Shown here: in pieces, positions 9,673 to 64,000 of the stretch
Position numbering within the stretch: position 1 is the stretch's first letter
Layout of the letters: the number at the start of each line of letters is the position of its first letter
Virus record (IMG/VR): IMGVR_UViG_3300022602_000026
Reading direction: 5' to 3' (one strand)
DNA: 64,000 nt
DNA from: a virus
Lineage: Duplodnaviria > Caudoviricetes
Notes under the pieces: generated by a model
Database searches by the model: none
What the model saw: only the letters and a program-made list of their open reading frames with translations
What the model was told of the DNA's origin: nothing
Translations under genes and position numbers: made by a program

Positions 9673-9673
9673 C

Positions 9674-10612: not shown

Positions 10613-10621
10613 TCAAAAGCA

Positions 10622-10650
10622 TTGACAGGTCTAAATATAACTGTTACAAT
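10622..10650 (+). promoter_or_regulatory. sigma70-type promoter
   Basis: TTGACA-17 bp-TACAAT, then AGGAG RBS. Confidence 0.8.
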
Positions 10651-10670
10651 TACACATCATAGGAGAAACC

Positions 10671-41939: not shown

Positions 41940-42237
41940 GCTGACTATATCCTCTAAGGATAAATGGAAACAGATACTGAAAGAAGTCGAAAAACTCGAA
42001 GCACCGGTATCTGTTATACAAACTATTTCAGTTAATTTGATAGATGGCACTCAAGTTGAAATTGATGTAGAGGAATTGTTAAAAGAGGGCATGAGCGAAA
42101 CAGATCTAGAAGAAGAGATAAATTCAAAACTGCGTGATTTAGATAGCATCATTTCCAATGTTGATTTTTTTATCAACATTGACCATGTTGCCAAAACAGT
42201 TCAGCCCATCACAGACAGTTTGCTTAAGAATTTATGA
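41890..42237 (+). CDS. Hypothetical protein
   Basis: 115-aa ORF. Confidence 0.6.
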   Translation: MAQQNPKRPSAKNKRHKLTISSKDKWKQILKEVEKLEAPVSVIQTISVNLIDGTQVEIDVEELLKEGMSETDLEEEINSKLRDLDSIISNVDFFINIDHVAKTVQPITDSLLKNL

Positions 42238-43346
42238 TTTCGGGCAACTTTGGACTTTTGTTACCAGTGTCGGGAATGTGTGCCACAGTGCATTTCGATT
42301 TTGACTACGCAAAGTCCAATGTGTTACGACCCAATGATAATTTACAAATCTATCACGATGCCGAACAGTATATCAATGCATCGCATGACTATAAAATAGC
42401 TGTGTTCGACGATTGGATTGACGGCGTTGGTCCGCAAGTGACACAGGCCACTGTTGACTGGCGAGTTCGTGTCAAAAATGCCAGTGACCATGTTATTCAT
42501 CATGCAGGTGAATTTCAAATTGCACATTTAAACTATATACTTGAATCAACAAAACAAGAAAAAAATATAACCTTTAGCTCGAGTGCAGTAATACACGAAC
42601 CACAAGGATTGCCGTTTGTTACATCTGTGATATGGTTTGTTACCACTACCGACTTGTATGTCAAATGCTATAAAGGCAAACTGCAACAACTGACTCCGTT
42701 TGTAACCAAGCCCTACTACTTTGATTACTTGCCGGGCTCGGTCAAATCACATAGGGTAAGAGTTGCTAATTACATCCGTAATAATTTAGCAGACAAAATA
42801 ATTGCAAGTCCTTTTTTCGAGCCCGGACGCACACGCACACCTGAAGAAATAGAAGAATTTTGGGAAGAGGGAATGAAAGATTTTGATTTTAATTCGTCGA
42901 GTACTGCACAGTACAACGGATTTGGTCCGTTGGCCAGTCACATCATTCCCATCAAAATATACAATAAAACTTGCTATAGCATAGTGGCCGAAACTACCAT
43001 TGATGATAAATATTCTTTTTACACTGAAAAAATAGCCAAGCCAATTTTGGCAAGTAGACTTTTTATAGTGTTTGCTGGAAAACATTATTTAAAAGGTCTT
43101 AGACAAATGGGGTTTAAAACGTTTGATGGCATCATTGACGAAAGTTATGATGAAATCGACAACAACGAAGCTCGGTGGGATGCGGCACTCGAGCAGGTAA
43201 ACTACTTGTGTAGTCAACCGCAAAACGAGATACTAGAGAAAATTATTCCGATAGTGACTCACAATTATAGACAGATGTTGAATTACGATTGGCAACGTCC
43301 AATTGAATATTTGATTGAAGATCTATTTATAAAATCAACAATTTAA
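42234..43346 (+). CDS. Glycosyltransferase-like protein (GT10-like C-terminal TEK motif), paralog 1
   Basis: IVAET...YTEKIAKPI...L..MGFKTF...DESYD. Confidence 0.5.
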   Translation: MISGNFGLLLPVSGMCATVHFDFDYAKSNVLRPNDNLQIYHDAEQYINASHDYKIAVFDDWIDGVGPQVTQATVDWRVRVKNASDHVIHHAGEFQIAHLNYILESTKQEKNITFSSSAVIHEPQGLPFVTSVIWFVTTTDLYVKCYKGKLQQLTPFVTKPYYFDYLPGSVKSHRVRVANYIRNNLADKIIASPFFEPGRTRTPEEIEEFWEEGMKDFDFNSSSTAQYNGFGPLASHIIPIKIYNKTCYSIVAETTIDDKYSFYTEKIAKPILASRLFIVFAGKHYLKGLRQMGFKTFDGIIDESYDEIDNNEARWDAALEQVNYLCSQPQNEILEKIIPIVTHNYRQMLNYDWQRPIEYLIEDLFIKSTI

Positions 43347-43352
43347 TAAACT

Positions 43353-43856
43353 ATGATAAATGCAATTTTTGCCGCCGATCAATACGGTGGTATAGGATTC
43401 CAAGGCTCTTTACCTTGGCCAAACATCAGCAATGATTTAAAAAACTTCAAACGGCTCACTGAAGGGCACGTGGTAGTAATGGGTCGTAAAACCTATGACG
43501 ATCCCAAACTGCCCAAGCCACTAGTGGGACGAACAGTGTATGTTGCCAGTAAACGATTGATTGCTGATTCAGTATATCAAATCAGTGGCGACATTGCCAG
43601 CGAAGTACTCAAAATAGAACAAGCACATCCCGATAAAATAATTTGGGTCGTTGGCGGATCTGAAATAATCGAACAATGCCAGGATCTTTACGACAACATT
43701 TACTTGACACATGTCAAGGGTTCGTATAAAATAGATGTTAAAGTGAACCTTAAAGGATTATTGTCCGGGAAGCTAATGCGTTATGCAAGTGCTGCGCCCG
43801 AAGATAATTGTACATTTGTAAGATATGAATCAATCTTTAGACGACCAAAAGCCTAA
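43353..43856 (+). CDS. folA: Dihydrofolate reductase
   Basis: GGIG..GSLPW, DL..FK..T, VVMGRKT, PL.GR, WVVGG. Confidence 0.93.
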   Translation: MINAIFAADQYGGIGFQGSLPWPNISNDLKNFKRLTEGHVVVMGRKTYDDPKLPKPLVGRTVYVASKRLIADSVYQISGDIASEVLKIEQAHPDKIIWVVGGSEIIEQCQDLYDNIYLTHVKGSYKIDVKVNLKGLLSGKLMRYASAAPEDNCTFVRYESIFRRPKA

Positions 43857-44559
43857 AATTTTTATTGGCGGGGATAGTTTTGGATGCGGCGAGTGGGACG
43901 AAAGTAGCACTCGTGTTGTTCATCTTGGATTAGAACAATACTTTAAGGATCGTGGATATCAAGTTATCAATTCATCAAAAGGTGGCAGTTCTAATGCAGC
44001 ATCTATTGCACGACTCATTGACAGTTTAGATAAAAGTTTTGTCAAAAATGACATTGTGTTTTGGATACAGTCCGACTGTTTGCGAGAACTAAGGCCGTTT
44101 ACAAATATCGCATCGTTGATAATCAAGGCCAATGGCTTAGCCGAACTTGTACAACAAATCACAGAAAAAGACTATGCAACTTTAAACTCGGCAGCAGTCA
44201 AATTTGACACCAAGATTCATTTAATTGGCGGGATACAAGATATCATGGTATCCAGTCTAACAAACTTTACCAATCTAAATGCTATAGTGCCCAGCTGGAT
44301 TTATATGCTAGTGGGGCATTTTGAAGAATATCAAGATTTATTCCCGCACCATTTACACACCGAAGAAGCGTCAAAATACATCACACTAAAAGTAATACGA
44401 GATCTCAAACTGTTTTATCGTGTGTTGGATGTGTTGTATAAAATGGAACGAAGTTGGATCTTGTATCGTGAAGATGCGTTCCGTCCCGACAAAATACATC
44501 CCAATCGAGACAGTCATCGAATATTGTTTGACCATCTAGTAAAAGAGTTGTTGTTATGA
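43825..44559 (+). CDS. SGNH/GDSL-like protein
   Basis: IGGDSFG, GGSSN, DKIHP. Confidence 0.6.
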   Translation: MNQSLDDQKPKIFIGGDSFGCGEWDESSTRVVHLGLEQYFKDRGYQVINSSKGGSSNAASIARLIDSLDKSFVKNDIVFWIQSDCLRELRPFTNIASLIIKANGLAELVQQITEKDYATLNSAAVKFDTKIHLIGGIQDIMVSSLTNFTNLNAIVPSWIYMLVGHFEEYQDLFPHHLHTEEASKYITLKVIRDLKLFYRVLDVLYKMERSWILYREDAFRPDKIHPNRDSHRILFDHLVKELLL

Positions 44560-45248
44560 TACATGCTTTTGGTGATAGTTTTGTTGTTGGTGACCAAGAT
44601 GACTATATCGGAGATGCCAATACCAATCCCAACGATCCGCCCACACACGGCATGAACGAACACGAGCGTACTGAGTATCTCAAATACAATGTTAGTTTTG
44701 CAGCCTTGATTGCCAAACAATTAAACACTGGTTTAAAAAATTATGCCGTGCGCGGCACTGGCAATTATCCACAGTTAGATATGCTTTGGAACCAATTGGT
44801 CGATAAAAACATAACTGCCGACGATGTTGTATTATTTGGAGTCACTACCGGAATTAGAGACCGTGCTGGTTCGTTGGATTATAAAGATTTAAGCAAGTCA
44901 TTGAGTGTGTTGCATTTGGCAAATTGGGACGATATTGGTGATATACCAAAAGTAGATCAATTTTATGTACTAAGTACACTAACACAACTAAGTGTTGCGT
45001 TTGGTGTTAGAATCATAAAGTTTAATTTGTTTGATCAAGCTCTAGACTTTGAATTCAATGACTATTTACGTGGCACTTTAGTCGATATCTTAAACGACAC
45101 TTACGGACAAAATATTGCTCATCCCTATCACGATCAATTAAAAATACCTGCCGGATACGAAGCACTATATACTTATAAAAAACATCCCAGTGTACAGGGA
45201 CATCAAAAAATAGCCCGTTGGTTTTTAAAGAACACGTTCAATGAATAA
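44556..45248 (+). CDS. SGNH/GDSL-like protein
   Basis: AFGDSFV, RGTGN, KKHPSVQGH. Confidence 0.6.
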   Translation: MIHAFGDSFVVGDQDDYIGDANTNPNDPPTHGMNEHERTEYLKYNVSFAALIAKQLNTGLKNYAVRGTGNYPQLDMLWNQLVDKNITADDVVLFGVTTGIRDRAGSLDYKDLSKSLSVLHLANWDDIGDIPKVDQFYVLSTLTQLSVAFGVRIIKFNLFDQALDFEFNDYLRGTLVDILNDTYGQNIAHPYHDQLKIPAGYEALYTYKKHPSVQGHQKIARWFLKNTFNE

Positions 45249-46212
45249 ACTAGAATACGATATATCAGACACCGGGTTGGGCACCCTTATATGCTTGGTA
45301 TCTACCTTTTTGCACAGCAACCAACAGATTGTGTTGAACACCAATAAACCAACAAGTGCTTTGTTTGCATTCAAAAGTATTTTCAATATTCCCGATAGTC
45401 AACTGTTGGTGAACTTTGCGCCCACACTAAAAGACGATATCATTTTGTCTTCGAGTCACAAACTCATGGTATCGGACATTGTAAAAACTTTTGCTCCCTA
45501 TCTTGAATTGAGCAAGGTCAATGTACTGGGACAACAACGCTCGTTGCGCGGTGCCGGCAAGCCGTGTGTTGCACTTTTGTGCTACAACAACTATCAGTCG
45601 TTTTTGGATTTTGATCCAACCCGTAGCACCTATCCCGATAACAGATATCACAGCATTGACGAGTATGCCGATTTATTTCGATTGATAAAGAGTGCCGGAT
45701 ACGAAGTAATGACCTTGGACAGCATGGAAATCAATCTCGAGCAAAAAGTTTATATGTTAAACGAATTGTGCGATGCAGTTGTGTGTTACGAAGGCGGACT
45801 TGGTCACCTAGCGCATTTGCTAAAGATACCCACTGTGCTATTGCCGTACCGATATCAACCCGGAGCATTTCGCAGTAGATGGAATCCCTATCTCAATTTG
45901 TTGCACTTGGATAAACGAACTTACTTTGTTGAAAGCATGGACGAAGTCAAATCCTGGACCACAAATTCGTTTCGGGAATTGATATCTAGTTTGTACAACG
46001 AGTCGGGAAACAATTTATTTTTATCAAAAGATTTAGACATAGAATTTTCTGAAGATTTTAAAACTGTTTCCATTTACGATGCCGAATTGGATTTACGCGA
46101 AGTTTCCGAGATACCAATAACAGATTTTGAATACGACTTTTACAACAACTATATCAAAGAATTAAAAATGTTCAATGATATAACACCTAAATTTATTAAG
46201 AGAACAACATGA
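45241..46212 (+). CDS. GT-B glycosyltransferase, GT9/heptosyltransferase-like
   Basis: LEQKVYML..CDAVVCYEGGLGHLAHLLKIPTV, a variant of DSGxxHxAxA...P. Confidence 0.55.
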   Translation: MNKLEYDISDTGLGTLICLVSTFLHSNQQIVLNTNKPTSALFAFKSIFNIPDSQLLVNFAPTLKDDIILSSSHKLMVSDIVKTFAPYLELSKVNVLGQQRSLRGAGKPCVALLCYNNYQSFLDFDPTRSTYPDNRYHSIDEYADLFRLIKSAGYEVMTLDSMEINLEQKVYMLNELCDAVVCYEGGLGHLAHLLKIPTVLLPYRYQPGAFRSRWNPYLNLLHLDKRTYFVESMDEVKSWTTNSFRELISSLYNESGNNLFLSKDLDIEFSEDFKTVSIYDAELDLREVSEIPITDFEYDFYNNYIKELKMFNDITPKFIKRTT

Positions 46213-47108
46213 AACAATACTTAGATGCACTACGCCAAGTACTCGAGTCGGGTACAGAACATCAAGACCGAACCGGTACCGGAACTCGTAGCCTGTTTGG
46301 TTTACAACAACGATACGATTTGCGACAAGGCTTTCCGGCAGTTACTACCAAGAAGCTGGCTTGGCGAGCTGTTGTATCAGAATTGCTTTGGTTCATTGAA
46401 GGTTCGGGGGACGAACGACGCCTGCGTGAAATTTTGCATGGCGACCGGGACTCGGAAAAAGGCACCATCTGGACTGCCAATGCCGAAGCCGATTACTGGC
46501 GACCCCGGGCACAATTTGACGGCGACTTGGGTCGTGTATACGGAGTACAGTGGCGCCATTGGCAACAGACCGAGCGTGAATGGATACAAAAGAACGGTGC
46601 TAACTATATAAAAAATAAAGAAATTGATCAATTAGATCAATTGATAAGAAGTATTAAACAAGATCCTTATAGCCGTAGACATATATTGACTGCGTGGAAC
46701 GTTGCCGACTTGGGTAAGATGGCACTACCTCCTTGTCACGTCTTGGCTCAGTTTAGTGTCAGACATGTACCTGGCGGCAGAGATGAACTCAGTTGCCAGA
46801 TGTACCAACGGAGTTGTGATATGTTTTTAGGGGTTCCATTTAATGTGGCAAGCTATAGCTTGTTAACGCATATGATCGCTCAAGTGTGCGATCTTGCCGT
46901 AGGAGAGTTTGTTCACGTTCTCGGCGACGCTCACATCTACCTTAATCACATTGAGCAGGTAAATGAACAATTGAAACGTGAACCCTTACCTGCGCCACAA
47001 CTATGGCTTAACCCTGATATTAAAGATATAGATGGGTTCACTATGGACGATATTAAGTTATTAAACTATCAATCACTAGATGCTATTCGAGCAGAAATGG
47101 CAGTATGA
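46209..47108 (+). CDS. thyA: Thymidylate synthase
   Basis: DRTGTGT, ELLWFI, YGVQWR, MALPPCH, YQRSCDMFLGVPFN, HIYLNH. Confidence 0.97.
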   Translation: MKQYLDALRQVLESGTEHQDRTGTGTRSLFGLQQRYDLRQGFPAVTTKKLAWRAVVSELLWFIEGSGDERRLREILHGDRDSEKGTIWTANAEADYWRPRAQFDGDLGRVYGVQWRHWQQTEREWIQKNGANYIKNKEIDQLDQLIRSIKQDPYSRRHILTAWNVADLGKMALPPCHVLAQFSVRHVPGGRDELSCQMYQRSCDMFLGVPFNVASYSLLTHMIAQVCDLAVGEFVHVLGDAHIYLNHIEQVNEQLKREPLPAPQLWLNPDIKDIDGFTMDDIKLLNYQSLDAIRAEMAV

Positions 47109-47644
47109 TACTAATCATTGGACGTAGCGATTTATCTGCAGCACTAGCGGCTATACTAGATGATGTAGTCATAGTTGGTCGACCCGATTATGACTTTTCT
47201 TTAAAAAGCGACTGCGATCGTTTGGTAAATACCTATACTCCCAACGTGGTAATTAATACTGTTGGGGTTATCAATCAAGATCTCTGGACCACGCTAACCA
47301 CTAATTATGTAGGAGTTGCGTATTTGACTTTAGAATTTTTTAACAAACTCAACCAAGCACATATTATCAATATATCCAGCGCATCAAGTTTTTGGGTCAG
47401 CTATCCCGACATCGACGATTCAAGACTGTCCTATAACTTGAGCAAAGAAGCATTGTCAACATTTGGGCGACACATGAATAGAAAAATTGTTGACTCCAAT
47501 AAAAATATTGTAACCACAATTGAGCCGGGAAAATTTAACAGTAAGATGAATGGGTACACTGGTGGTATGCCCGTCGAACATGTAGCCAATTGGATCAAAC
47601 GAGTAATTAAAGATCCAGTTGCACAACTTTCAATAATAAAATAA
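47105..47644 (+). CDS. Short-chain dehydrogenase/reductase-like protein
   Basis: VINTVG, INISSAS, YNLSK (YxxxK), IEPG. Confidence 0.7.
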   Translation: MILIIGRSDLSAALAAILDDVVIVGRPDYDFSLKSDCDRLVNTYTPNVVINTVGVINQDLWTTLTTNYVGVAYLTLEFFNKLNQAHIINISSASSFWVSYPDIDDSRLSYNLSKEALSTFGRHMNRKIVDSNKNIVTTIEPGKFNSKMNGYTGGMPVEHVANWIKRVIKDPVAQLSIIK

Positions 47645-48723
47645 TGCTAAAACTTGCCGATGTAAAATCTGTACAATTAGAAATAAGCAGTTACTGTAAT
47701 GCTGCTTGTCCTCAGTGTCCGAGAAATTACTTTGGCGGAGATACTATACCCACATTGCCGTTGCGTAAATGGACCTTGGCCGAATTCAAAAATATATTCA
47801 CAGTTGAATTAATGAATCAACTTGAACAAGTTTATTTTTGTGGTACTTATGGCGATCCACTTACCAATTCACATATAGTGGATATGTGCAAATATCTAAG
47901 AGAACACAGCAAGATTAAAATTGGCATACACACAAATGGCGGTATTGGTAGCGAACATACCTACAAAGAACTAGCCAAGGTTGTAGACTTTATTGCTTTT
48001 GGTATTGATGGATTAGAAGACACAAATCATTTGTATCGTAGAAATGTCAAATGGAATAAAATTTTAAAAAATGCCAGTGCATTTATTGATGCCGGTGGAT
48101 ATGCAATTTGGGATTTTATTGTATTCCAACACAACGAACATCAAACCGAAGTTGCAAAGACTCTAAGCAAAGAACTAAAATTTGCCGAGTTCAATATCAA
48201 AAAGACCGGAAGATTTCTAAATCATGTGCACGAGTACATTGATTCCTTGCCGGTATACGATCGAAAGAAAAATTTAGAGTATACAATATCCATTCCCACT
48301 AAAAAAGAATTTGTTAATAAGAATTACAAAAAATTAGAACTTGTTAGACAACAGCATGGATCATTATCCTCGTATGCACAAACAACAAAAATAAATTGCA
48401 ATGCCCTTAGAATCAAAGAAATATATATTGGATCTGACGGATTTGTGTTTCCCTGCGGATGGTTGCACGATCGACTTTACGGACACAATGTAGAAGGGCA
48501 CAATGATCATTATCAAATAAAACACATGATGCACAGTGCCGGCGGGTGGGACCGGGCCAATATTTTTTATACACCATTGGCCGATATCGTTGATGGTAAA
48601 TGGTTTGAAGAAATTGATGCCAGCTGGCACAATGACAAAAGGCTTGATCGTTGTGGTATCATGTGTGGTAGTGTTGTTAACTTAATAGGTGCACAAAACG
48701 AAGATGTCAAATACAAACCCTGA
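47644..48723 (+). CDS. Radical SAM protein with C-terminal SPASM/twitch domain
   Basis: CNAACPQC, CGTYGDP, HTNG, FGIDG, VFPCGW, C..MC. Confidence 0.88.
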   Translation: MLKLADVKSVQLEISSYCNAACPQCPRNYFGGDTIPTLPLRKWTLAEFKNIFTVELMNQLEQVYFCGTYGDPLTNSHIVDMCKYLREHSKIKIGIHTNGGIGSEHTYKELAKVVDFIAFGIDGLEDTNHLYRRNVKWNKILKNASAFIDAGGYAIWDFIVFQHNEHQTEVAKTLSKELKFAEFNIKKTGRFLNHVHEYIDSLPVYDRKKNLEYTISIPTKKEFVNKNYKKLELVRQQHGSLSSYAQTTKINCNALRIKEIYIGSDGFVFPCGWLHDRLYGHNVEGHNDHYQIKHMMHSAGGWDRANIFYTPLADIVDGKWFEEIDASWHNDKRLDRCGIMCGSVVNLIGAQNEDVKYKP

Positions 48724-50781: not shown

Positions 50782-50783
50782 AG

Positions 50784-55784: not shown

Positions 55785-56055
55785 AGTCTGCGTCATAGAT
55801 ATCGCGCATTTCTTGTAACGGGCAAACAAAGTCGGCAATTACAAAATCAGATTCTATTCTACCGGACATTTCTCGCATTCGTTTAGATTGTCTAATTCTT
55901 CCCTCGTGACTGAAATCCCAATCATCGTATTCTTCACGAACTCGATCGGCATTTAACCAAACGGTTTTAAATCCACGCGAGTCAAGCTCTTGCTTGAGTG
56001 CATCGGCTAAAGTGGTTTTGCCTGCGCCCGGTAGGCCCATTATTAGTATTCTCAT
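55624..56055 (-). CDS. cysC: Adenylylsulfate (APS) kinase-like protein
   Basis: GLPGAGKTT, LNADRVR, DFS.EGR.RQ..R, DFVCP. Confidence 0.8.
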   Translation of the reverse strand: MRILIMGLPGAGKTTLADALKQELDSRGFKTVWLNADRVREEYDDWDFSHEGRIRQSKRMREMSGRIESDFVIADFVCPLQEMRDIYDADFTVWVDTLTTGRYEDTNHLWQPPQKYQIRILTQDTSRWIPLVLEELAKYRSQT

Positions 56056-57545: not shown

Positions 57546-58173
57546 AAAGTTTGTTTGCTACTTGTTTGTGTCCGTCGTCAAGAAAATGTCCATTTGGTCC
57601 ACGTTTACAACCCTGTGTCCATTCAGCCATCCCTGCATTGGGCCATCCCAGATAATGTTGCCGATCTATCAATTGATCTAAATGGTAGTATTGTAAGTAA
57701 TGACTGTTATGATAGTACTCGTTGCCCACAGTTCTCAGCATCACATAACGTATATTACAGGATTTTAAGAAATTTTGCAACAAAATAACGTCCATTAAAT
57801 GTTGTTGATACATCCAAGTACTGTTATGATGTTCGTTTATGTATTCCAGTAGTTCCATTCTCCAAACTTGCCCACTGCTCTGGAACATATTTCCCGAATA
57901 TCCGGGCCAAATATCATAGGGGCCGGCTGCATCAGCAAACTCCATTCGCCCGGGACTGCTCCAACCAATTATAACAAAGTCAATGGGAATTTTGTTTGCT
58001 ATCTGCTCCATTACTGTACGCACCATGCGTCGATTTCCCGACCCAGGTCGAGCAAGATTGTTTACTTTGCATCCTATTGTTCTTGAAAGAAGATAGGGAT
58101 ATGCGTTCATTATATCCGAAAGTTCTTCTCCGTAGGTGAAACTGTCGCCTACGGCCAATATATTATTAATCAT
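57511..58173 (-). CDS. SGNH/GDSL-like protein
   Basis: AVGDSFT, PGSGN, NGHF...GH. Confidence 0.6.
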   Translation of the reverse strand: MINNILAVGDSFTYGEELSDIMNAYPYLLSRTIGCKVNNLARPGSGNRRMVRTVMEQIANKIPIDFVIIGWSSPGRMEFADAAGPYDIWPGYSGNMFQSSGQVWRMELLEYINEHHNSTWMYQQHLMDVILLQNFLKSCNIRYVMLRTVGNEYYHNSHYLQYYHLDQLIDRQHYLGWPNAGMAEWTQGCKRGPNGHFLDDGHKQVANKLYEHIRSFGWLS

Positions 58174-58271
58174 TTGTATATAAAAGGATCTCGTTTGCGT
58201 AGCTCTCGGAGCTTTTTGCGATAACGTATTTCAAGTACAAGTCGATTGTACATTTTCTTTAACCATTTCAT
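58170..58271 (-). CDS. 33-aa basic microprotein A (not in the ORF track)
   Basis: MKWLKKMYNRLVLEIRYRKKLRELRKRDPFIYK; stop overlaps the next ATG. Confidence 0.75.
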   Translation of the reverse strand: MKWLKKMYNRLVLEIRYRKKLRELRKRDPFIYK

Positions 58272-58272
58272 G

Positions 58273-58953
58273 TTATATTCTTTCTAGTATGTATATCACT
58301 AACCCGCCACTTCGATAATTAAACAACGCAGGTATTAGTATATTATTTAAGATACTTGGACCGGCCGAGGTTATTTTCCATCCCGGAGTCATTGCTTGTA
58401 CTTGCTTTTGTGTAAAACTCAATTCAAATGGATTTTGTTCTTGATCTTGGTATAGTATATCACTGTGATAATTTATTTGTAGGAATCTTTTTGCTATCTT
58501 GCCCACGGGATGATATAATCCCAATATCATTTTTCCATTATCGGCTACACTGTCCAATAACTTTGGTAATACTTGTTGATATTCGGGAATATGATGTAGA
58601 ACTCCTTGACACAAAACAATATCAAATTTGTTGGGTATTGTGTATTTGACTACATCTTCTTTAAGAAAAGTAACATTTGTTATACGGTTTGACCTTGCAA
58701 ATTCTTTTGCATAGTCAATTGAGGTTGCAAAGTCTAGACCAACAATATTTGTATTTTTGTTTCGTAGTGCCAATAAGTTAGATATTAATCCAGTACCACA
58801 ACCAACATCTAAAACAGTACTTGCTCGGGATACCTGCGTATTTATAATGTGTAAATATCTATTCTCAATTGGATCTCCGTAGCTGGATAACTGTTCTAGA
58901 GTGTAATAGCCCGGGAACGGAGTTTTATCATAGAATTCTTTTACCGATGTCAT
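58273..58953 (-). CDS. Class I SAM-dependent methyltransferase
   Basis: VLDVGCGTG, GLD, FDIVLCQGVLHH. Confidence 0.9.
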   Translation of the reverse strand: MTSVKEFYDKTPFPGYYTLEQLSSYGDPIENRYLHIINTQVSRASTVLDVGCGTGLISNLLALRNKNTNIVGLDFATSIDYAKEFARSNRITNVTFLKEDVVKYTIPNKFDIVLCQGVLHHIPEYQQVLPKLLDSVADNGKMILGLYHPVGKIAKRFLQINYHSDILYQDQEQNPFELSFTQKQVQAMTPGWKITSAGPSILNNILIPALFNYRSGGLVIYILERI

Positions 58954-59051
58954 TTGTAAAGATACGGATCTCGTTTACGAATTTGTTTTAATACTCGGCG
59001 ATAATGTATTGCTAACTTTATTTCTTTATAAAGATTTCTTAACCAGTTCAT
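58950..59051 (-). CDS. 33-aa basic microprotein B (not in the ORF track)
   Basis: MNWLRNLYKEIKLAIHYRRVLKQIRKRDPYLYK; stop overlaps the next ATG. Confidence 0.75.
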   Translation of the reverse strand: MNWLRNLYKEIKLAIHYRRVLKQIRKRDPYLYK

Positions 59052-59832
59052 TGAATTTGTCTTTCATTAATTCGGCAGCTGCTTGATGTGCTTGTTCCAA
59101 TGGATGTGTTGTGCCTATAGGATATTTATTTTCCACTGCCCATTGATAAAAGCCTCGCGGTGTTGTTGTGTTCCAAGGTTCATGCGCTGGCTCAAACAAA
59201 AACCATTTATCAAAATTGATTTGTTTGTTAAGGTTTACTACGTTTAAGTCCTGTTGCGATTGATTGTAAAACATATTGGTATCTGCACAAGTAAACATAT
59301 AGGGTATTTGATTACTGTCAAGGTATTGTTGTAAAAATAACATTTCCTTAACCGAAGAATATGTTTCGTATAACTCGTTATCGCCAATATTTTTATAAAA
59401 GATTTTTGCAAATTTGCCCAATTCGGTTTGATTCAACTTGGCAAAATGATCAGTATGGTGTTTTGCTATTACTTGGTCCGACTTCACAATGTGCAATATC
59501 TCGTCCATGGTATCGTGTGAGTCCCAGGGAGTTAAACTATACCAGTTACTGGTTCTAACCTGTTGATTAAAATAAAATTCGTATCTACAACTAAACGTCC
59601 ATGTAACATGCACAAATAATTTTTGTTCCAGGTATTGGTTGCAGGCGTTGATCACTTGTCTTGCAATTGCGCTATTAGAATTTCCAGTTTGTGCTGTACA
59701 GAGATACTCTAAGTTGTAATTGTTGGCCAGTAGAGCTGGGAATGTAGATTTGCTGGGCACATGAGTTCCCGGCAATTGATCTGCCAATTCAGTTCCATAA
59801 ACAAAACTATCACCCCCGGCTACTAAAATCAT
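59026..59832 (-). CDS. SGNH/GDSL-like protein
   Basis: MILVAGGDSFV, TGNSN, TTHPLEQAH. Confidence 0.6.
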   Translation of the reverse strand: MILVAGGDSFVYGTELADQLPGTHVPSKSTFPALLANNYNLEYLCTAQTGNSNSAIARQVINACNQYLEQKLFVHVTWTFSCRYEFYFNQQVRTSNWYSLTPWDSHDTMDEILHIVKSDQVIAKHHTDHFAKLNQTELGKFAKIFYKNIGDNELYETYSSVKEMLFLQQYLDSNQIPYMFTCADTNMFYNQSQQDLNVVNLNKQINFDKWFLFEPAHEPWNTTTPRGFYQWAVENKYPIGTTHPLEQAHQAAAELMKDKFNELVKKSL

Positions 59833-60880
59833 ATCCTGGTCGTAATCTTTCAATTTGTTGTTGATAATAGTCTGCATCGGTCCAAGTATAATCGTATACT
59901 GCACGTACATCACCGGCTTCTATGCTGAGTATATCTAAATATTTTGACAGTACGGGCCAAACTTTTCGAAAGTCTGTGGTGCCAAAGCTCTTGAGCAACT
60001 CAACTTGACCAACAGGGTGGTATCCATAATTGTATTCGGTATTTTGTGCATCAAATCCGTTACGATGCAACCACTCCCTAAATCCAGTCATTTCTCGTGT
60101 GTGCCACGGATGCGGTCCATTAAAGATAACATCTTGTGCCCACTCAATATCAAACTCTCCACTATAATAGCGTAAATGAGTAATAGCATCACAAGTAGCA
60201 CTATCGATATCCACTCCATGCTCATCACGATAGACTTCATAAAGCGTTTTACCAATCTGCGTCCAATGGAGGTAGACTTCCCCGAATCGTCTATCGTATC
60301 TAGTTTCATCAAAAGAGGTTTTATGTTCATGGGGGAAATCTATCCTGGGTGCATTTAAGAAAGTTGTTATTTGACTGGGTCGAATCCATTCGGGTTGTGT
60401 TGCTTGTTTGCGTTGACTCAACATCAAACTCTCTGCTTCGTGACATAAATTGTTTAGTTGTCTAATGGCAAACTTTGTTTCATAGTCTGCACGTCGGTAA
60501 TAATCACTTAACTCCCACACAGTACCTTGTAAATGTTCAAAGTGATTATGTAGCCTATTCATAACATCTTGATTGGGATCTAAACCCTCGCGCATAGTGC
60601 TGGGCAAATATACTTCAGGTATCCAATATTCCTGGCCAAAGAATCGATTGATTTGATTTGTTGCCCAATTAAGTTCTCGACATATAAAATCTAAGTTTCT
60701 AGCACTATCAGGAAAACCCAAAAAGCAAAAATTCTTTTCAAGATAATTGTTGTTACGCAATAAATCTTGCAATGCTAGGTACCATAACTCGCCTATAGGC
60801 GAATCGTTTACTGCAATTGTGTAATCAATTTGATCCCGTTTGTTTAACGGGTTGCGTAGTACTATTTTAACTTGTCTCAA
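59810..60880 (-). CDS. Hypothetical protein
   Basis: 356-aa ORF in operon; NRLHNHFE, LNNLCHE; no family recognised. Confidence 0.7.
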   Translation of the reverse strand: MRQVKIVLRNPLNKRDQIDYTIAVNDSPIGELWYLALQDLLRNNNYLEKNFCFLGFPDSARNLDFICRELNWATNQINRFFGQEYWIPEVYLPSTMREGLDPNQDVMNRLHNHFEHLQGTVWELSDYYRRADYETKFAIRQLNNLCHEAESLMLSQRKQATQPEWIRPSQITTFLNAPRIDFPHEHKTSFDETRYDRRFGEVYLHWTQIGKTLYEVYRDEHGVDIDSATCDAITHLRYYSGEFDIEWAQDVIFNGPHPWHTREMTGFREWLHRNGFDAQNTEYNYGYHPVGQVELLKSFGTTDFRKVWPVLSKYLDILSIEAGDVRAVYDYTWTDADYYQQQIERLRPGYDFSSRG

Positions 60881-62183
60881 TGCTGTCCCACCATGCTAAT
60901 ACTGCTGGACGTTCAGACAGTATGTCTCTCATAGTATACACGTCTTTGCGAATAGACTCAAGAGTTAATATACGTTGTTTGCCCTTTATTAATCCAATTT
61001 GGTAAGTGTCAGGCCACTGTTCCGCAAATGTGGGTCTAGTTTTCAGCTGGACTAAGATATCCTTTAACGGGGTGCTACCACTTGGCAATTGCCGTATCTC
61101 GTCATCTATCCAGGGATCTAATAGTTCCCGGGGTAGGGCTAAAGGTGACATAACTATGTCCGGGCTGAAACTAAAAATTACTTTGGCAAGGATTTCCGCA
61201 CCAAGTTCTTTTCCAAGAGCTTGCACTCGCCCACATTCGAACATGCCTGGCAACGTGAGTGTAAAATCGATTCGCATCTGTCGAGCATTAGTTGCAATCT
61301 CAGTTCCTCTACGGAAGTTCTCAAGCCACCGATCGTACTCAAGGCCTGTTCTAATATATTCGCCAATCGCTCCTGTTCCGTCGAGCGATGCACAGATTTG
61401 CCAATCCCGTAAATGGGGCAAAATATCGGTATAAAGCCCAATGCCACGATAACTAATACGGGACAAATTAGTATTATATCTAGCATAAACATTTTTGCCA
61501 TCTCCTAATTCAACAATCCGTTTCATGTACTTCCAATGTTGCTCGTACATCAACGGCTCCCCGCCCACCCAGTAGACTTCTTCAACTCTATGTTCTTCTA
61601 CTGCGTCGCTAAACTCTTGTTCAATTTGAGTCGCTTGGAATTGTTCAATTTGTTGTTTGATTTCGGGTCGCATCCAATTGTTCTTGGGATTGGTGTAGTC
61701 GATCATGTGGTGTGTGCGTTGTTCGGTCTCCCATGCACTTGACAACATATCGCCACACATGCGGCACTTGAAATTGCAGAGATTACTGAACCGATAGTCC
61801 CAGCTCACCGGCCGCATTGTTGTGCGGCCTGTGTCATCTGTGGAAGCGATTGCTTCATTGTACTTATCGCCAAACAGTTGGTTAAAATAACTGCGGTAAA
61901 CAGAGGTATTCAACAGTTTATCATTACATACTTCGCACTCGGGTAATGTTTCGCCGGACATCATGCGTTTTCGTACGGAGCGCATGTGGTCACCGTTCCA
62001 ATGTTCGTCCAGGGTGATAGGTATATACCGACCAGAACCGGCGCTGGTGTCGATATACTGTTGAAAGTTTTGTGCAGGTTCACGACTGGCACAACACATT
62101 CTGCGTTCAGTTTGCGGACTCAAATAAGTATGACACCAAGCGGCTAAACACAAATTAGGAGGCTTTTCTTTCGGAAATTCCAT
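60867..62183 (-). CDS. Radical SAM protein with N-terminal SPASM/twitch-like domain
   Basis: C.AAW...MCCAS...C..C; CNFKCRMC; GGEP; YNTN; SLDG; start placed at 62183. Confidence 0.88.
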   Translation of the reverse strand: MEFPKEKPPNLCLAAWCHTYLSPQTERRMCCASREPAQNFQQYIDTSAGSGRYIPITLDEHWNGDHMRSVRKRMMSGETLPECEVCNDKLLNTSVYRSYFNQLFGDKYNEAIASTDDTGRTTMRPVSWDYRFSNLCNFKCRMCGDMLSSAWETEQRTHHMIDYTNPKNNWMRPEIKQQIEQFQATQIEQEFSDAVEEHRVEEVYWVGGEPLMYEQHWKYMKRIVELGDGKNVYARYNTNLSRISYRGIGLYTDILPHLRDWQICASLDGTGAIGEYIRTGLEYDRWLENFRRGTEIATNARQMRIDFTLTLPGMFECGRVQALGKELGAEILAKVIFSFSPDIVMSPLALPRELLDPWIDDEIRQLPSGSTPLKDILVQLKTRPTFAEQWPDTYQIGLIKGKQRILTLESIRKDVYTMRDILSERPAVLAWWDSIETS

Positions 62184-62192
62184 TTTTAATTG

Positions 62193-62199
62193 ATAAATA
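62193..62199 (+). promoter_or_regulatory. T4-late-like promoter ATAAATA upstream of the HNH gene
   Basis: ATAAATA 65 bp before the ATG, followed by a GATG/CATC hairpin and an AAAGGA RBS. Confidence 0.5.
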
Positions 62200-62263
62200 A
62201 AAGTGCAGGTCGCGATGCTACCAACATCCACCCGCTCTAACAGTTGTAAAGGAACTATCAGCA

Positions 62264-62842
62264 ATGATATTTATAGATAACAAATATACTCGTTGGTATT
62301 ATAACATAATCACTAACTCACAAGCAAGAACTCTGCCTCTAGATGTTTACACCGAGAAACATCATGTTATTCCTAGAAGTCTAGGCGGAAATAACTCAAA
62401 ATCTAATCTAGTCAGTCTAACTGCAAAAGAACATTTTATATGTCATCTCTTGTTGCCAAAAATGCTAACAGGTGATAACAAGTTAAAAATGGTATATGCA
62501 TTATACTGCATAACCCATGTTCGCAATAAGGGACAAACGACCCGACATGTACCTACATCGAGACTTTTTAATAAGATAAAAGAAGACTGGAAATCGAGTA
62601 TTAAAGGACGAGTTGCACACAATAAAGGCAAGCCAATGTCGGCCGAGCAGAAAGAAAAACTGCGATTAGCTAACATTGGAAAAACCTATACTAGGTCTGC
62701 TGAATATTTACAAAAACAATCATTGGCACAAACTGGTAAATCAAGAGGCAAAGGACGAGCATCTAATAGAAAAGGTATTGCAATGTCAGAGGAACAAAAA
62801 GCAAAGATCCGCAATACCTTACTTAAAAGATATCGTGGTTAA
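62264..62842 (+). mobile_element. Free-standing HNH homing endonuclease with NUMOD3-like DNA-binding repeats
   Basis: EKHHVIPRSLGG.N...NLV.LTAKEHFICH; repeats KGKPMSAEQKEKL and KGIAMSEEQKAKI; antisense to both neighbours. Confidence 0.88.
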
Positions 62843-64000
62843 TAACCCATTGCTCCGGCTATTTCTGGATGTGTGTCTCGAAAGTTTTGTTTGCGATATG
62901 CATCAGTTTGTTGCATTTGTCTTAAAAACTCTCGGCCATCACTGCCCTGACCCAATTCAATAAATTTAATAACACGATCTATTTCTTCTTGATGTTTATT
63001 TGTGGTCCAAAATTTAGTTTTTAGTTTGTTTAATACCAACTCTTGTGCTCGTGGAGTCATATACTGTATGCTCATGTGATTGGGACTGTGTAACATATTA
63101 AAGTAAATGCTACCAAAATCTTTAGTATCAGCCCAAGCCAATAACTCATCCAAGTAATAAACATTTTGTATATTGATAGTAAAGCATAACTGAGTAGTAA
63201 TGTTAGGTGCCCATTCTGTTTTGGCAAAATGTGTTCGGTCAATATTACTGTTAGCTTCTGCCCAATTGGCACCGTAACGTTCGTATTCAAAACGTTCGCC
63301 CACATTATCAATACTGAATGCAATGTCCACTCGACCAAACTTTGCCCACATAGGTACATGCGGTAACGGTGTTTGTGTGGCATTGGTGTTGTAGTGTATG
63401 TCAATGTTTCGACTATATCCTTGATCTACTGCATATTGTAGTAGATCAAAGTGCTCTTGTATTAACCAGGGCTCACCGCCAGTAAACTCAAAATATCGAA
63501 TGTTGGGCAACAATGCTTTTAAGTTTTCCCAGAACCCAGGGCTTTCTTCGGGCCACTTGCCGGCCTTGAGCCAAGTATATGCGATGTGCTTTTTCTTGTC
63601 TGCACCTTGAGGCAAGTAATCCATTTCTTCTGCGGCCCACTTGCTACTACTCCATGATCCGCATATACGACATTTTAAATTGCAAATGTTACCAAGTTTT
63701 AAATCTACAAACCAAAGTTGATTGGGAGTATCATTCGCCCAATCCACTTCGGGATATAATTCTTTAAGTCTAACCTGCGTGTGCATACGTTTACTGGTAC
63801 GGCCTGCATCTTCCTCGTCCCAACATCTCTTACAAGTTGCGGGTTTGGCGCCTACACGAAATTGTCGACGCAGATCCTGCATGTACTGACTTTTGTATAC
63901 AACTTGTAAATTTGTTTTAGTTAGGTCGTATTTGTTACCGGCTTCGTCTACGATCTCGTCATGTGCAAGACAACAGGGCCTAGTGGTACCCATTGGACTA
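62839..64000 (-). CDS. Radical SAM protein with N-terminal SPASM/twitch-like domain; 5'-truncated by the window edge
   Basis: RPCC...C..C; CNLKCRIC; TGGEP; YNTN; FSID; frame open to the window end. Confidence 0.88.
   Translation of the reverse strand, partial: SPMGTTRPCCLAHDEIVDEAGNKYDLTKTNLQVVYKSQYMQDLRRQFRVGAKPATCKRCWDEEDAGRTSKRMHTQVRLKELYPEVDWANDTPNQLWFVDLKLGNICNLKCRICGSWSSSKWAAEEMDYLPQGADKKKHIAYTWLKAGKWPEESPGFWENLKALLPNIRYFEFTGGEPWLIQEHFDLLQYAVDQGYSRNIDIHYNTNATQTPLPHVPMWAKFGRVDIAFSIDNVGERFEYERYGANWAEANSNIDRTHFAKTEWAPNITTQLCFTINIQNVYYLDELLAWADTKDFGSIYFNMLHSPNHMSIQYMTPRAQELVLNKLKTKFWTTNKHQEEIDRVIKFIELGQGSDGREFLRQMQQTDAYRKQNFRDTHPEIAGAMGY

Follow-up and report, generated by a model that had tools for sequence, protein, structure and literature searches.

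A conserved gene block of a freshwater jumbo phage predicted to make and tailor a decorated glycan

What might a phage make with a compact set of sugar-building and sugar-decorating genes, and where would the product be placed? We addressed this for positions 42234-64000 of a 64,000-nucleotide stretch of DNA (the window, meaning the whole stretch analysed) from an uncultured freshwater jumbo phage, for which a sequence-only reading had proposed a phage-encoded glycan-tailoring arsenal with a Nod-factor-like chemistry. The genes for sugar building and decoration are indeed present and form an intact, conserved block; the grouping is far beyond chance and recurs across related phages. Specifically, the carbamoyltransferase of the block was matched in 328 viral contigs, 80 of which were fetched for comparison (locus counts refer to these 80), and the suggested look at gene neighbourhoods revealed the same core order in most of them: radical SAM (rSAM) array, 356-aa protein, small peptide, SGNH protein, carbamoyltransferase, kinase, glycosyltransferases, DegT aminotransferase and epimerase, at carbamoyltransferase identities of 62-92%. 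The core is under purifying selection (dN/dS 0.06-0.18, similar to thymidylate synthase, ThyA; 0.07-0.10 for the carbamoyltransferase), and gene decay, one of the outcomes that were to count against the proposal, was not seen. One could still suppose that unrelated auxiliary genes with no common product have simply piled up side by side in a hypervariable region, as the accessory genes absent from most or all relatives (44556, 45241, 47105, 58273 and 62264) and the interleaving of ThyA, dihydrofolate reductase (DHFR) and HNH genes with the others might indicate. However, the core order is kept though the carbamoyltransferases differ by up to 38%, neighbouring co-directional genes overlap by 1-40 nt, and bacterial loci link these families as well, making a chance assemblage quite improbable.

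The reading that we favour, with a probability of roughly 0.5, is that the cluster makes and tailors a glycan in the cytoplasm of the infected cell, probably on a soluble acceptor and most likely on a virion surface protein. The neighbouring tail fibres would be one example of such an acceptor, and the predicted product would most likely be an unusual decorated sugar coat. We infer all of the proposed chemical steps, the product and the acceptor, the steps from family assignments.

Synthesis would begin with two enzymes that had been recognized correctly from the start: an NDP-sugar epimerase/4,6-dehydratase of the extended SDR type (49813..50781, plus strand; PF01370, E 1e-42; 52 of 80 loci), to which, among solved structures, dTDP-glucose 4,6-dehydratases and UDP-hexose 4-epimerases come closest (E 6e-26), and a DegT/DnrJ/EryC1 sugar aminotransferase (50742..51881, plus strand; PF01041, E 2e-66; 55 of 80 loci), which resembles DesV/QdtB-type sugar 3-aminotransferases most closely, with 7b0d, DesV (2oga) and QdtB as its closest solved structures. 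Together, they may convert a host NDP-hexose to an amino-deoxy sugar donor; no gene of the window was recognized as a sugar nucleotidyltransferase. A short, window-specific SDR-like protein of 179 aa (47105..47644, plus strand) carries an S...YxxxK motif (NISSASS, YNLSK); its PF00106 score (22.6 bits) lies under the cut-off of 26.6.

Sugar transfer would fall to an 880-aa protein, three TEK-motif paralogs and a GT9-like protein. The 880-aa protein (51878..54520, minus strand; 67 of 80 loci) had been called a multi-module GT-A enzyme, a description that stands at the fold level, although no match was found in Pfam, PHROG or NCBIfam: its AF2 model (pLDDT 81) starts with beta-rich repeats, has three GT-A-like domains and ends in a helical C terminus. 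Foldseek matched the model to multi-GT-A enzymes with E values of 2e-5 to 7e-4 (K4CP, 2e-5; Mimivirus R699, 5e-5; LH3; heparosan synthase; PBCV-1 A64R), and to Swiss-Prot glycosyltransferases, the likeness being one of domains only given low global TM-scores to every match. The three proteins described as GT10-like (42234..43346, 370 aa, YTEKIAKP...GFKTFD...DESYD; 48689..49816, 375 aa, HLTEKSFKA...GFKTFG..DESYD; and 54519..55784, 421 aa; all plus strand) are true paralogs with a common C-terminal domain of ~100 aa that contains an xTEK motif (blastp of the first against the second and third, E 2e-12 and 3e-11). Their GT10 label fared less well, as Pfam GT10 matched none of 16 family members and an hhalign comparison with a genuine phage GT10 family lined up the motif but had a probability of 2%; the first paralog was also without a match in Pfam, PHROG and NCBIfam. 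Other phages have TEK-motif family members in fusion with NDP-sugar epimerases. The third paralog, whose last ~36 aa are unconserved and overlap the kinase gene convergently, has over 4300 relatives of viral or metagenomic origin that lack Pfam domains; among its structural neighbours in the Atlas are proteins fused to an NDP-sugar epimerase and others fused to a methyltransferase. For the window-specific GT9-like protein (45241..46212, plus strand; GT-B C-terminal motif YEGGLGHLAHLLKIPTVLL; no homologs in the 80 loci), similarity to PF01075 was found (E 7e-4), but its 19.4 bits fall short of the 22 set as cut-off. GT10 or GT9 membership is thus unproven for four of the five glycosyltransferase-like proteins, and the supposed GT4 enzyme at 5659 yielded no Pfam match.

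Could the sugars instead be destined for DNA? Within the block, a canonical ThyA (46209..47108, plus strand; PF00303, E 1e-108) lies less than 10 kb from the carbamoyltransferase, and a dCMP-deaminase domain occurs elsewhere in the window. This arrangement recalls a phage carbamoyltransferase that turns 5hmC into 5-carbamoyloxymethylcytosine and co-occurs with thymidylate-synthase homologs (PMC8670742), so that carbamoyltransferase and glycosyltransferases might here decorate hydroxymethylated bases of the phage genome. That system pairs with an Asp177 enzyme, as do most modified contigs, whereas unmodified contigs in the same study had carbamoyltransferases flanked by glycosyltransferases, as here (PMC8670742). 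The ThyA of the window passes the thymidylate synthase equivalog cut-off (NF002497, 358.7 bits against 327), and its PPCH and PFNVAS motifs supply the equivalents of Cys146/His147 and Asn177, the same residues being found in 35 of 35 relatives; retention of Asn177 argues against hypermodification. Adjoining ThyA is a DHFR gene (43353..43856, plus strand; PF00186, E 3.5e-25; 34 of 80 related loci), an enzyme known to be required only for reductive methylation. Among the ~40 ORFs, from part of the window, that were scanned against Pfam and/or PHROGs, none matched a hydroxymethylase or a TET/JBP enzyme. DNA, one of the targets first suggested, is therefore disfavoured to the point of being very improbable, and in our reading ThyA and DHFR serve ordinary dTMP synthesis, outside the glycan pathway.

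Decoration of the putative glycan is best represented by a NodU/CmcH/TobZ-type O-carbamoyltransferase (56052..57545, minus strand), an assignment upheld by both of its domains (PF02543, E 1e-38; PF16861, E 4e-48) and by its nearest solved relatives, the sugar or natural-product O-carbamoyltransferases NovN (1e-49), GdmN and TobZ. This enzyme would O-carbamoylate the product, probably in complex with a 33-aa DPFIYK peptide (58170..58271, minus strand; C terminus RKRDPFIYK) whose gene sits in a gap of 99 nt and is ATGA-coupled to the one that follows; a second, diverged copy (58950..59051, minus strand; C terminus RKRDPYLYK) is ATGA-coupled to the methyltransferase gene. The peptide was found in 76 of 81 phage loci (the 80 viral contigs and this window) and in RsoM2USA. 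Modelling supports its binding to the carbamoyltransferase: the predicted complex scored 0.72 against 0.00 for the best control (58 of 80 solved complexes attain the mark applied, as do 2 of 110 mismatched pairs), with partner pLDDT of at least 81, at least 95% of contacts shared between runs, and the last five peptide residues placed against carbamoyltransferase residues adjoining the HxxxH...D motif.

Further groups may come from a class I SAM methyltransferase and a small kinase. The methyltransferase (58273..58953, minus strand; PF13847, E 3e-20; NodS PF05401, E 2e-8) is as first described, and is an accessory gene found in only 1 of 80 relatives; at the family level, both O-carbamoylation and methylation are well founded. 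Sulfation is weaker than claimed. The purported APS kinase (55624..56055, minus strand) does match PF01583 (E 1e-12), but is a truncated P-loop protein of 143 aa that covers profile positions 5-91 of 152, leaving the profile unmatched beyond position 91, and its relatives of 263-279 aa extend further at the C terminus, where a faint cytidylyltransferase-like match is seen; the sulfotransferase at 12406, 43 kb off, has both PAPS-binding motifs and a score exactly at the Pfam cut-off. An acyl carrier protein at 5033-5260 was corroborated (PF00550, E 2e-11). Acyl or carbamoyl groups might be put on or taken off by four SGNH-like proteins, all of which have an N-terminal GDS motif. Two are encoded on the plus strand and had no Pfam match: 43825..44559 (244 aa; GGDSFGCGEW and a DxxH-like DKIH motif; 4 of 80 related loci and G005) and the window-specific 44556..45248 (230 aa; FGDSFVVGDQ; no homolog in the 80 loci). 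Two on the minus strand are DUF6071-like at 24.4 bits for PF19547, below the cut-off of 27: 57511..58173 (VGDSFTYGEE and DDGH; 38 of 80 loci and RsoM2USA) and 59026..59913 (AGGDSFVYGTE; 31 of 80 loci), the latter probably starting at Met28.

The most conserved parts of the cluster, which are also its least understood, are the 33-aa peptide, the N_Twi rSAM array and the 356-aa protein. Two N_Twi rSAM enzymes are encoded on the minus strand (60867..62264, 465 aa, NF033640 at 282 bits against a cut-off of 170, 77 of 80 loci, dN/dS 0.11-0.16; and 62839..63993, 384 aa, 313 bits, 74 of 80 loci), and relatives have a tandem array of five, in which three further paralogs follow the counterpart of 62839, past the point where the window ends. 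A third enzyme, of generic SPASM/twitch type (47644..48723, plus strand; PF04055, E 2e-15; CNAACPQC; 8 of 80 loci), had only sub-threshold NCBIfam matches. The N_Twi enzymes might make radical edits of unspecified type to the glycan, although, as a radical SAM family without known reaction, they may have substrates other than sugars. The 356-aa protein (59810..60880, minus strand; 72 of 80 loci) is modelled as a cyclophilin-like barrel with a helical insert (AF2 pLDDT 85); it had no Foldseek PDB match, a VIA-align Z of ~8 to cyclophilins, AFDB matches to uncharacterised bacterial proteins (3e-20) and 5991 relatives without Pfam domains. Between the two N_Twi genes, on the opposite strand, lies an HNH endonuclease-like ORF (62264..62842, plus strand; PF01844, E 3e-4, 21.1 bits against 21.4) that was not found in the 80 relatives and is probably a mobile insertion outside the pathway. 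The initial enzyme list, partly wrong in its labels, had thus described a real set while missing its core; its omissions were ThyA, DHFR, the HNH gene, three rSAM genes, the 356-aa protein and the two 33-aa peptides.

These same conserved parts could be taken to signal a natural product, either a RiPP, with the 33-aa peptide as precursor or carrier and its DPFIYK tail modified by the rSAM enzymes, carbamoyltransferase and transferases, or an aminoglycoside-like metabolite. Near invariance of the peptide within the cluster and the modelled proximity of its tail to the HxxxH...D motif would fit, as would the weak match of the rSAM profile to solved twitch- or SPASM-type enzymes (SkfB, YydG, anSME, BtrN), some of which are peptide maturases, and the co-occurrence of DegT, twitch rSAM and TobZ-like enzymes in aminoglycoside pathways. 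Yet one would expect greater variation in a RiPP core, the peptide accompanies the carbamoyltransferase even where there is a single rSAM gene (RsoM2USA), the equivalent position in bacteria is held by DUF5989, a membrane-anchored small protein, and the window is without a protease or exporter; we consider such a product unlikely.

As to the acceptor, none of the 22 proteins of the interval has a membrane-spanning segment, and in five related genomes the rSAM array has tail-fibre-like genes no more than 20 kb away. This synteny agrees with the 'host recognition cluster' described for aquatic T4-like phages (PMC7029224) but could be a mere consequence of a hypervariable genome region. The enzymes might alternatively remodel the host envelope, acting during infection on the host's own lipid-linked intermediates of O-antigen, capsule or S-layer glycan and thereby blocking superinfection or keeping progeny from sticking to debris. 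Absence of membrane segments is compatible with such a target, because soluble glycosyltransferases also use membrane-bound lipid-linked intermediates, and those that build O-antigen are soluble or peripheral proteins too. Moreover, bacterial locus L127, with the same enzyme families, also has an ABC-transporter ATPase of a sort that occurs in polysaccharide export loci. Against this, none of the 22 ORFs encodes a membrane protein, be it an initiating phosphoglycosyl transferase, a flippase, a polymerase, a ligase or one of another kind, and the phage looks lytic and T4-like or jumbo, whereas known serotype-converting systems belong to temperate phages with membrane Gtr proteins. Envelope remodelling, although it is the published reading for glycosyltransferases in the pelagimyophage host recognition cluster (PMC7029224), is thus possible but rather doubtful here.

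Among known systems, the virus-encoded enzymes R699 of Mimivirus and A64R of PBCV-1 are among the multi-domain GT-A proteins that the 880-aa model resembles; A64R, per its PDB entry title, attaches glycan to the major capsid protein. The likeness to Nod factors is no more than an analogy, and the frame adds nothing: the carbamoyltransferase scores 140 bits against the NodU equivalog cut-off of 1000, and NodA, NodB and NodC models are unmatched, as the Pfam scan of all 22 interval ORFs gave only the matches listed above. On bacterial MAG contigs, too, tandem N_Twi rSAM genes adjoin those for DegT, epimerase, carbamoyltransferase and GDSL proteins. In bacterial loci and in the sxtI/K/L genes, a carbamoyltransferase, a small PFIY protein and a GDSL protein form a module like the one described here, and this module is the closer parallel.

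All 22 ORFs translated from the interval (42234-63993) were scanned against Pfam, PHROGs and NCBIfam, and their proteins were mapped onto 80 related contigs, fetched from the 328 IMG/VR contigs that matched the carbamoyltransferase (62-92% identity). The neighbourhood comparison across related phages that the sequence-only reading had proposed revealed a fixed core order that recurs on most of these 80 viral contigs: three radical SAM (rSAM) paralogs of the N_Twi family, rSAM384, rSAM465, a gene for a 356-aa protein, a peptide gene and one to three SGNH genes, followed by genes for the carbamoyltransferase, a kinase, a 421-aa TEK-motif protein (on the opposite strand), a triple GT-A protein, a DegT aminotransferase, an epimerase, and thymidylate synthase (ThyA) with DHFR. 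Five genes (at 44556, 45241, 47105, 58273 and 62264) were accessory to the window in this mapping, so the cluster comprises a conserved core and a variable periphery, and we consider it improbable that enzymes held in such an order serve no common product. Core genes compared with their nearest relatives had dN/dS values of 0.06-0.18, the same range as ThyA, indicating that they are not decaying, as the sequence-only reading had allowed they might be (outlying values for DegT against contig L003 and for DUF6071b, one of two DUF6071-like proteins, against L002 and L004 were artefacts of gapped HSPs and were disregarded). One related carbamoyltransferase (L004:10001-11485; 77% identical) carries an internal stop codon, which may point to a pseudogene, a frameshift or faulty assembly. 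A reduced module, comprising rSAM, SGNH proteins, peptide and carbamoyltransferase, is retained in the distantly related Ralstonia jumbo phage RsoM2USA.

The DNA polymerase of the virus (7009-9672) is of T4-type family B (PHROG 262, E = 3e-191), and its nearest cultured relatives are those of jumbo phages, namely Sinorhizobium phage Phosso (51% identity, 469 kb), Agrobacterium phage Atu_ph07 (44%) and the Rak2/GAP32 group. A 20-kb block had no near-identical match among 50,697 phage records, at least half of the sampled words of a 7.7-kb stretch were present in each of six public freshwater metagenome runs, and no RNA run was listed as containing either this stretch or the carbamoyltransferase gene alone. 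Promoter and terminator scans returned site counts no higher than in shuffled sequence.

Family scans secured several members of the glycan-tailoring set that had been named from the sequence alone: an NDP-sugar epimerase/dehydratase (49813-50781), a DegT-type aminotransferase (50742-51881), a carbamoyltransferase (56052-57545; 133.8 and 163.5 bits for its two Pfam domains, with cut-offs of 24 and 27), a methyltransferase (58273-58953; Pfam) and, outside the interval, an acyl carrier protein (5033). Other assignments held only in part. The GT9-like protein (45241-46212) scored 19.4 bits with PF01075 (cut-off 22), the match being limited to residues 164-201, and the SDR (47105-47644) scored 22.6 bits (cut-off 26.6). 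All four SGNH-like proteins (43825, 44556, 57511 and 59026) have an N-terminal GDS, and two have a DxxH-like block V motif (DKIH, DDGH), but two of the four reached only 24.4 bits with DUF6071 (cut-off 27) and the others had no Pfam match; a literature search found no functional study of DUF6071. The proposed GT4 (5659) was without support. The sulfotransferase-like protein (12406-13044) has both PAPS-binding motifs (PKNASS and RDPVDRWVS), but its Pfam score lies exactly at the cut-off; it closes a second small tailoring group beside the DNA polymerase (9647-13044), together with a methyltransferase (9647-10612), a 246-aa ORF and a radical SAM/SPASM protein (11411-12409).

The protein taken for an APS kinase (55624-56055, minus strand) passed PF01583 (48.5 bits, cut-off 21.1), but this 143-aa P-loop protein covers only profile positions 5-91 of 152. 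Besides the P-loop, it has LNADRVR and FVCP motifs, which resemble the LDGD..R and FISP motifs of APS kinases, with the lid segment absent. Its gene and that of the 421-aa TEK-motif protein overlap convergently by 161 nt (55624-55784); the last ~36 residues of the TEK protein are unconserved, and its relatives have 373-404 residues. Because many kinase relatives are longer (263-279 aa, with a C-terminal part faintly resembling cytidylyltransferases) and because of this overlap, the kinase in the window may derive by truncation from a kinase-nucleotidyltransferase fusion.

Three proteins previously described as GT10-like (42234-43346, 48689-49816 and 54519-55784, all on the plus strand; 370, 375 and 421 aa) proved to be genuine paralogs, with ~100 C-terminal residues in common and the signature xTEK...GF(K/R)TF...DESYD, but their membership of GT10 could not be demonstrated by Pfam, hhalign or Atlas. 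The three paralogs had no PF00852 match, nor did any of 16 family members at E ≤ 0.05, with a true GT10 in a related genome detected at 28 bits. An alignment of a 40-sequence TEK profile with 30 phage GT10 proteins placed TEK on TEK over 79 columns (probability 2.1%, P = 0.023), and the 421-aa family gave a probability of 0.2% against a single true GT10. In Atlas, the feature score of the TEK protein to GT10 clusters was 0.79, below the 0.9 mark, and the structural neighbours of the TEK domain included fusions to NDP-sugar epimerase or methyltransferase domains. The 421-aa TEK-motif protein has more than 4300 metagenomic relatives. The GT10 detected at 28 bits (L084:1327-2178, ~80 kb from the cluster in the related genome G001) lies beside two small ORFs and has a family of at least 163 metagenomic relatives.

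The multi-module GT-A assignment, for an 880-aa protein (51878-54520, minus strand), was upheld at the level of fold. Pfam, PHROGs and NCBIfam gave no sequence-family match for this protein, and PDB profile searches with the 880-aa, 356-aa and 421-aa families yielded nothing meaningful; its AF2 model (pLDDT 81), however, matched multi-domain GT-A enzymes by Foldseek, including K4CP chondroitin polymerase (E = 2e-5), Mimivirus R699 (5e-5), LH3 and heparosan synthase 2 (E of 2e-5 to 7e-4 and probabilities of 0.87-0.99 across these four), as well as LARGE1, with single-domain matches to PBCV-1 A64R, ArnC and GtrB. Its secondary structure suggests Rossmann-like modules at residues ~300-420, 427-600 and 650-790, preceded by beta-rich repeats and followed by a helical tail, and its alignment has acidic residues at the expected sites (S354-E355, C485-D and K711-L-E) with no canonical DxD. 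Atlas searches with the 880-aa and 356-aa proteins returned only unnamed viral clusters or no usable match.

The interval also encodes three radical SAM enzymes that the sequence-only reading had overlooked. Two of them, rSAM465 (60867-62264) and rSAM384 (62839-63993), both on the minus strand, belong to NCBIfam NF033640 (N_Twi_rSAM; 282.4 and 313.1 bits, cut-off 170), and the third (47644-48723, plus strand) is generic. Both N_Twi enzymes of the window combine the CX3CX2C motif with extra N-terminal cysteines, and CNLKCRxCG is invariant in 18 aligned members. Four near-complete relatives (338-357 kb) have 8-13 copies per genome above the cut-off, with five arranged in tandem within the cluster, and none was found above it in 14 control genomes. 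To our knowledge, the family has no assigned reaction. Exactly between the two N_Twi genes, on the opposite (plus) strand, lies an HNH endonuclease-like ORF (62264-62842; 1-nt and 4-nt overlaps) that had no homolog in 80 related loci and has the appearance of a recently inserted homing endonuclease. Environmental genomes of T4-like phages with 12 rSAM genes are on record (PMC5332604), and we found no functional study of rSAM together with carbamoyltransferase in jumbo phages.

Adjoining the array, the conserved 356-aa protein (59810-60880, minus strand) has a confidently predicted fold (AF2, pLDDT 85) with no Foldseek PDB match at E ≤ 0.001; in AFDB, its model matched uncharacterised bacterial proteins, and its 5991 metagenomic relatives are without any Pfam domain. 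Comparison with cyclophilin barrels by VIA-align gave a middling Z of ~8, within the chance range for such models.

Two copies of a 33-codon ORF, both on the minus strand, were recovered at 58170-58271 (ending RKRDPFIYK) and 58950-59051 (ending RKRDPYLYK), each filling a short gap between genes and joined to the next gene by an ATGA overlap. Of 81 phage loci (the 80 contigs and the window), 76 encode the peptide (consensus MNWLKNLYNRIxLEIRYRKKLKELRKRDPFIYK), always directly upstream either of the carbamoyltransferase or of its preceding SGNH gene; the peptide was also found in RsoM2USA. Complex prediction with each partner supplied as an alignment gave a score of 0.72 for carbamoyltransferase and peptide and 0.00 for the best of three controls; 58 of 80 solved complexes and 2 of 110 mismatched pairs attain the mark for this score. 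In the predicted complex (partner pLDDT of at least 81, and contact agreement between runs of at least 95%), residues 29-33 of the peptide touch enzyme residues 10-11, 75-80, 136-137, 167-186 and 213-229, in the N-terminal Kae1-like domain and beside the Kae1-type HxxxH...D motif (H112-x3-H116, D135), which aligns with HHLAHA and DGAGE of NovN and which we take to be the metal and acceptor site, as in TobZ. The modelling supports binding of the peptide to the carbamoyltransferase, and we read the peptide as a putative small subunit that may help to form or gate the acceptor site; it could also be a substrate of the enzyme.

A comparable arrangement occurs in the sxt cluster, where sxtI (carbamoyltransferase), sxtJ, sxtK (165 nt, of unknown function) and sxtL (GDSL) follow one another in the gene list, a joint action of SxtI with SxtJ and SxtK has been proposed, and an APS kinase and a sulfotransferase are also present (PMC2679770). 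In two Bacteroidota loci (L127 and L130), likewise, the carbamoyltransferase is followed by a DUF5989 protein ending APFIYSLF (PF19451, E = 1e-22). The likeness consists of a carbamoyltransferase beside a very small PFIY-tailed protein and a GDSL/SGNH gene. However, the phage peptide is encoded upstream rather than downstream of the enzyme, has no hydrophobic stretch that could form a membrane helix, had no PF19451 match at E ≤ 1 and aligned with DUF5989 by hhalign through PFIY alone. The window showed neither an SxtJ homolog nor a gene for a toxin scaffold (amidinotransferase, sxtA-type). A product of another kind for the cluster, namely a peptide or small molecule, appears unlikely to us.

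The sequence-only reading had left the target of the cluster among virion proteins, the host surface and DNA. DNA has become the least plausible of these. In a study of phage 5hmC carbamoyltransferases (Yang et al. 2021, PMC8670742), which belong to the same Pfam families as the enzyme here and likewise have a thymidylate-synthase family gene within 10 kb, modified contigs mostly had Asp177 thymidylate-synthase homologs, whereas carbamoyltransferases on unmodified contigs were flanked by glycosyltransferases. The gene string in our window includes thymidylate synthase (46209-47108) and DHFR (43353-43856), both previously overlooked. The thymidylate synthase passes its equivalog model (358.7, cut-off 327) and keeps the Cys-His (PPCH, His147) and Asn177 (PFNVAS) equivalents of the dUMP type, with Asn and His present in 35 of 35 relatives. 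Because this canonical enzyme adjoins DHFR and the sugar-enzyme flanks resemble those of the unmodified contigs, hypermodification of DNA is very improbable. Both genes are joined by 4-nt overlaps within the same co-directional string (42234-51881) as enzymes whose nearest solved relatives use dTDP-sugars; dTMP synthesis beside putative dTDP-sugar enzymes may be coincidence.

Remodelling of the host envelope is a stronger competitor, since the soluble enzyme set would also be compatible with action on host lipid-linked intermediates. Yet all 22 proteins are without membrane-spanning segments, and no initiating transferase, flippase, polymerase or ligase was found among them, a composition that fits cytoplasmic assembly on a soluble acceptor; we therefore regard envelope remodelling as unlikely, though less so than the alternatives of a peptide or small molecule, of DNA or of no common product.

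The surroundings of the cluster were examined in five related phage genomes (G001-G005). In the closest relative, G005, the region past the position where the window ends encodes an AMP-binding enzyme, a hexapeptide acyltransferase and further TEK-motif and SGNH paralogs, followed by several tail-fibre-like proteins (PHROG tail-fibre matches with E down to 4e-15) that lie 10-17 kb upstream of the rSAM array. Homologs of these fibre proteins are within 20 kb of the array in the other four genomes; the window itself ends before the fibres.

Linkage among these families is not peculiar to phages. In a scan of species-representative genomes, for which a narrowed rSAM alignment was used (a mixed alignment being too diverse), N_Twi rSAM genes were found on long bacterial MAG contigs (Acidimicrobiales, 1.04 Mb; Bacteriovoracia, 1.9 Mb; Microthrixaceae; Bdellovibrionales; Bacteroidota), in tandem arrays and beside DegT, epimerase or carbamoyltransferase genes. 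For example, the Bacteroidota contig L127 encodes, in order, an ABC-transporter ATPase, a methyltransferase-PhyH fusion, four PhyH dioxygenases, an N_Twi rSAM, a carbamoyltransferase, a 49-aa DUF5989 protein, a GDSL protein and an epimerase. Arrays of 5-8 N_Twi genes with no adjacent carbamoyltransferase gene were observed on three Bacteriovoracaceae and Bdellovibrionales MAG contigs (L094, L126 and L096). The highest-ranking matches of the scan, contigs L086-L095, filed under MAGs of Legionellales, Haliscomenobacter, Rickettsiales, Pacearchaeota and others, had complete phage cluster synteny, are probably mis-binned phage contigs and were left out of the count of cellular evidence.

Together, these results suggest, with a probability of roughly 0.5, a soluble pathway of glycan synthesis and tailoring whose product is placed on a soluble acceptor made by the phage, virion or tail-fibre proteins being the likeliest candidates. 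Reading the chemistry from family resemblance throughout, an amino-deoxy sugar donor would be made, the glycan would be assembled by multiple glycosyltransferases and then carbamoylated, acyl and methyl groups would be added, and the product would be edited by radical reactions of unspecified type. More speculatively, the N_Twi array, the 356-aa protein and the carbamoyltransferase-peptide pair may form a new pathway that makes several radical C-H edits to a glycan or glycopeptide on tail fibres or elsewhere on the virion surface; in an alternative form of the proposal, the invariant DPFIYK tail itself would be the carbamoylated, glycosylated or cross-linked product.

Decoration of virions by such a pathway, if true, would add abundant aquatic jumbo phages to the viruses that make their own glycosylation, as giant viruses and mycobacteriophages do, with a bearing on host recognition, on immune or grazer recognition and on particle stability. 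The radical-edit proposal, if true, would add a new class of viral post-translational decoration and assign a reaction for the first time to a very large family of radical SAM enzymes. This family occurs in bacterial tandem arrays as well, and its chemistry could be sought in the cluster, which is compact and soluble. The predicted peptide complex suggests a testable role for widespread carbamoyltransferase-associated small proteins of the SxtK/DUF5989 type. Core proteins of the cluster have thousands of metagenomic relatives. Genomic description of such clusters and virus-encoded virion glycosylation are already known; our literature search turned up no publication that treats the fixed core of five N_Twi rSAMs, 356-aa protein and peptide-carbamoyltransferase pair, or its chemistry.

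Among known systems, the Nod-factor parallel drawn by the sequence-only reading extends, as an analogy, to the tailoring enzymes, namely a carbamoyltransferase of the same superfamily, a class I methyltransferase (NodS profile E = 2e-8), APS-kinase-like and sulfotransferase-like proteins and an acyl carrier protein, but not for the core of the Nod pathway: no Pfam model for N-acyltransferase (NodA), chitooligosaccharide deacetylase (NodB) or chitin-synthase type GT2 (NodC) matched among the 22 ORFs. The carbamoyltransferase reached 140 bits with the NodU equivalog NF041651 (cut-off 1000), over residues 255-490 only. Moreover, the genes here are spread over 50 kb, and the rSAMs, GT-A protein, TEK proteins and peptide have no Nod counterpart.

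Virus-encoded glycosylation machineries such as those of PBCV-1 (A64R), Mimivirus (R699) and mycobacteriophages act in the cytoplasm on virion proteins; the PDB entry title for A64R states that it glycosylates the major capsid protein, and mycobacteriophage virion glycosylation was reportedly described by Freeman and colleagues in 2023. The cluster resembles these machineries in its soluble, virus-encoded GT-A enzymes and in the amino-deoxy sugar enzymes encoded alongside. No sequence-level homology to them was found, and we know of no radical SAM arrays or carbamoyltransferase in the PBCV-1, Mimivirus or mycobacteriophage systems. The arrangement matches the host recognition cluster described for T4-like myophages of aquatic habitats (pelagimyophages and cyanomyophages), a large variable region in which tail fibres occur with glycosyltransferases, LPS-type sugar enzymes and rSAM cassettes (Zaragoza-Solas et al. 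2020, PMC7029224); the evidence given there is genomic throughout, the proposed role is modification of the host O-chain, and freshwater fonsimyophages are without the LPS-related and rSAM genes (PMC7029224). In both cases fibre genes flank glycosyltransferase and rSAM genes, as seen here in five relatives, whereas the present cluster belongs to a freshwater jumbo phage of the Phosso/Atu_ph07 lineage and is distinguished by its fixed core of five N_Twi rSAMs, 356-aa protein, peptide and carbamoyltransferase.
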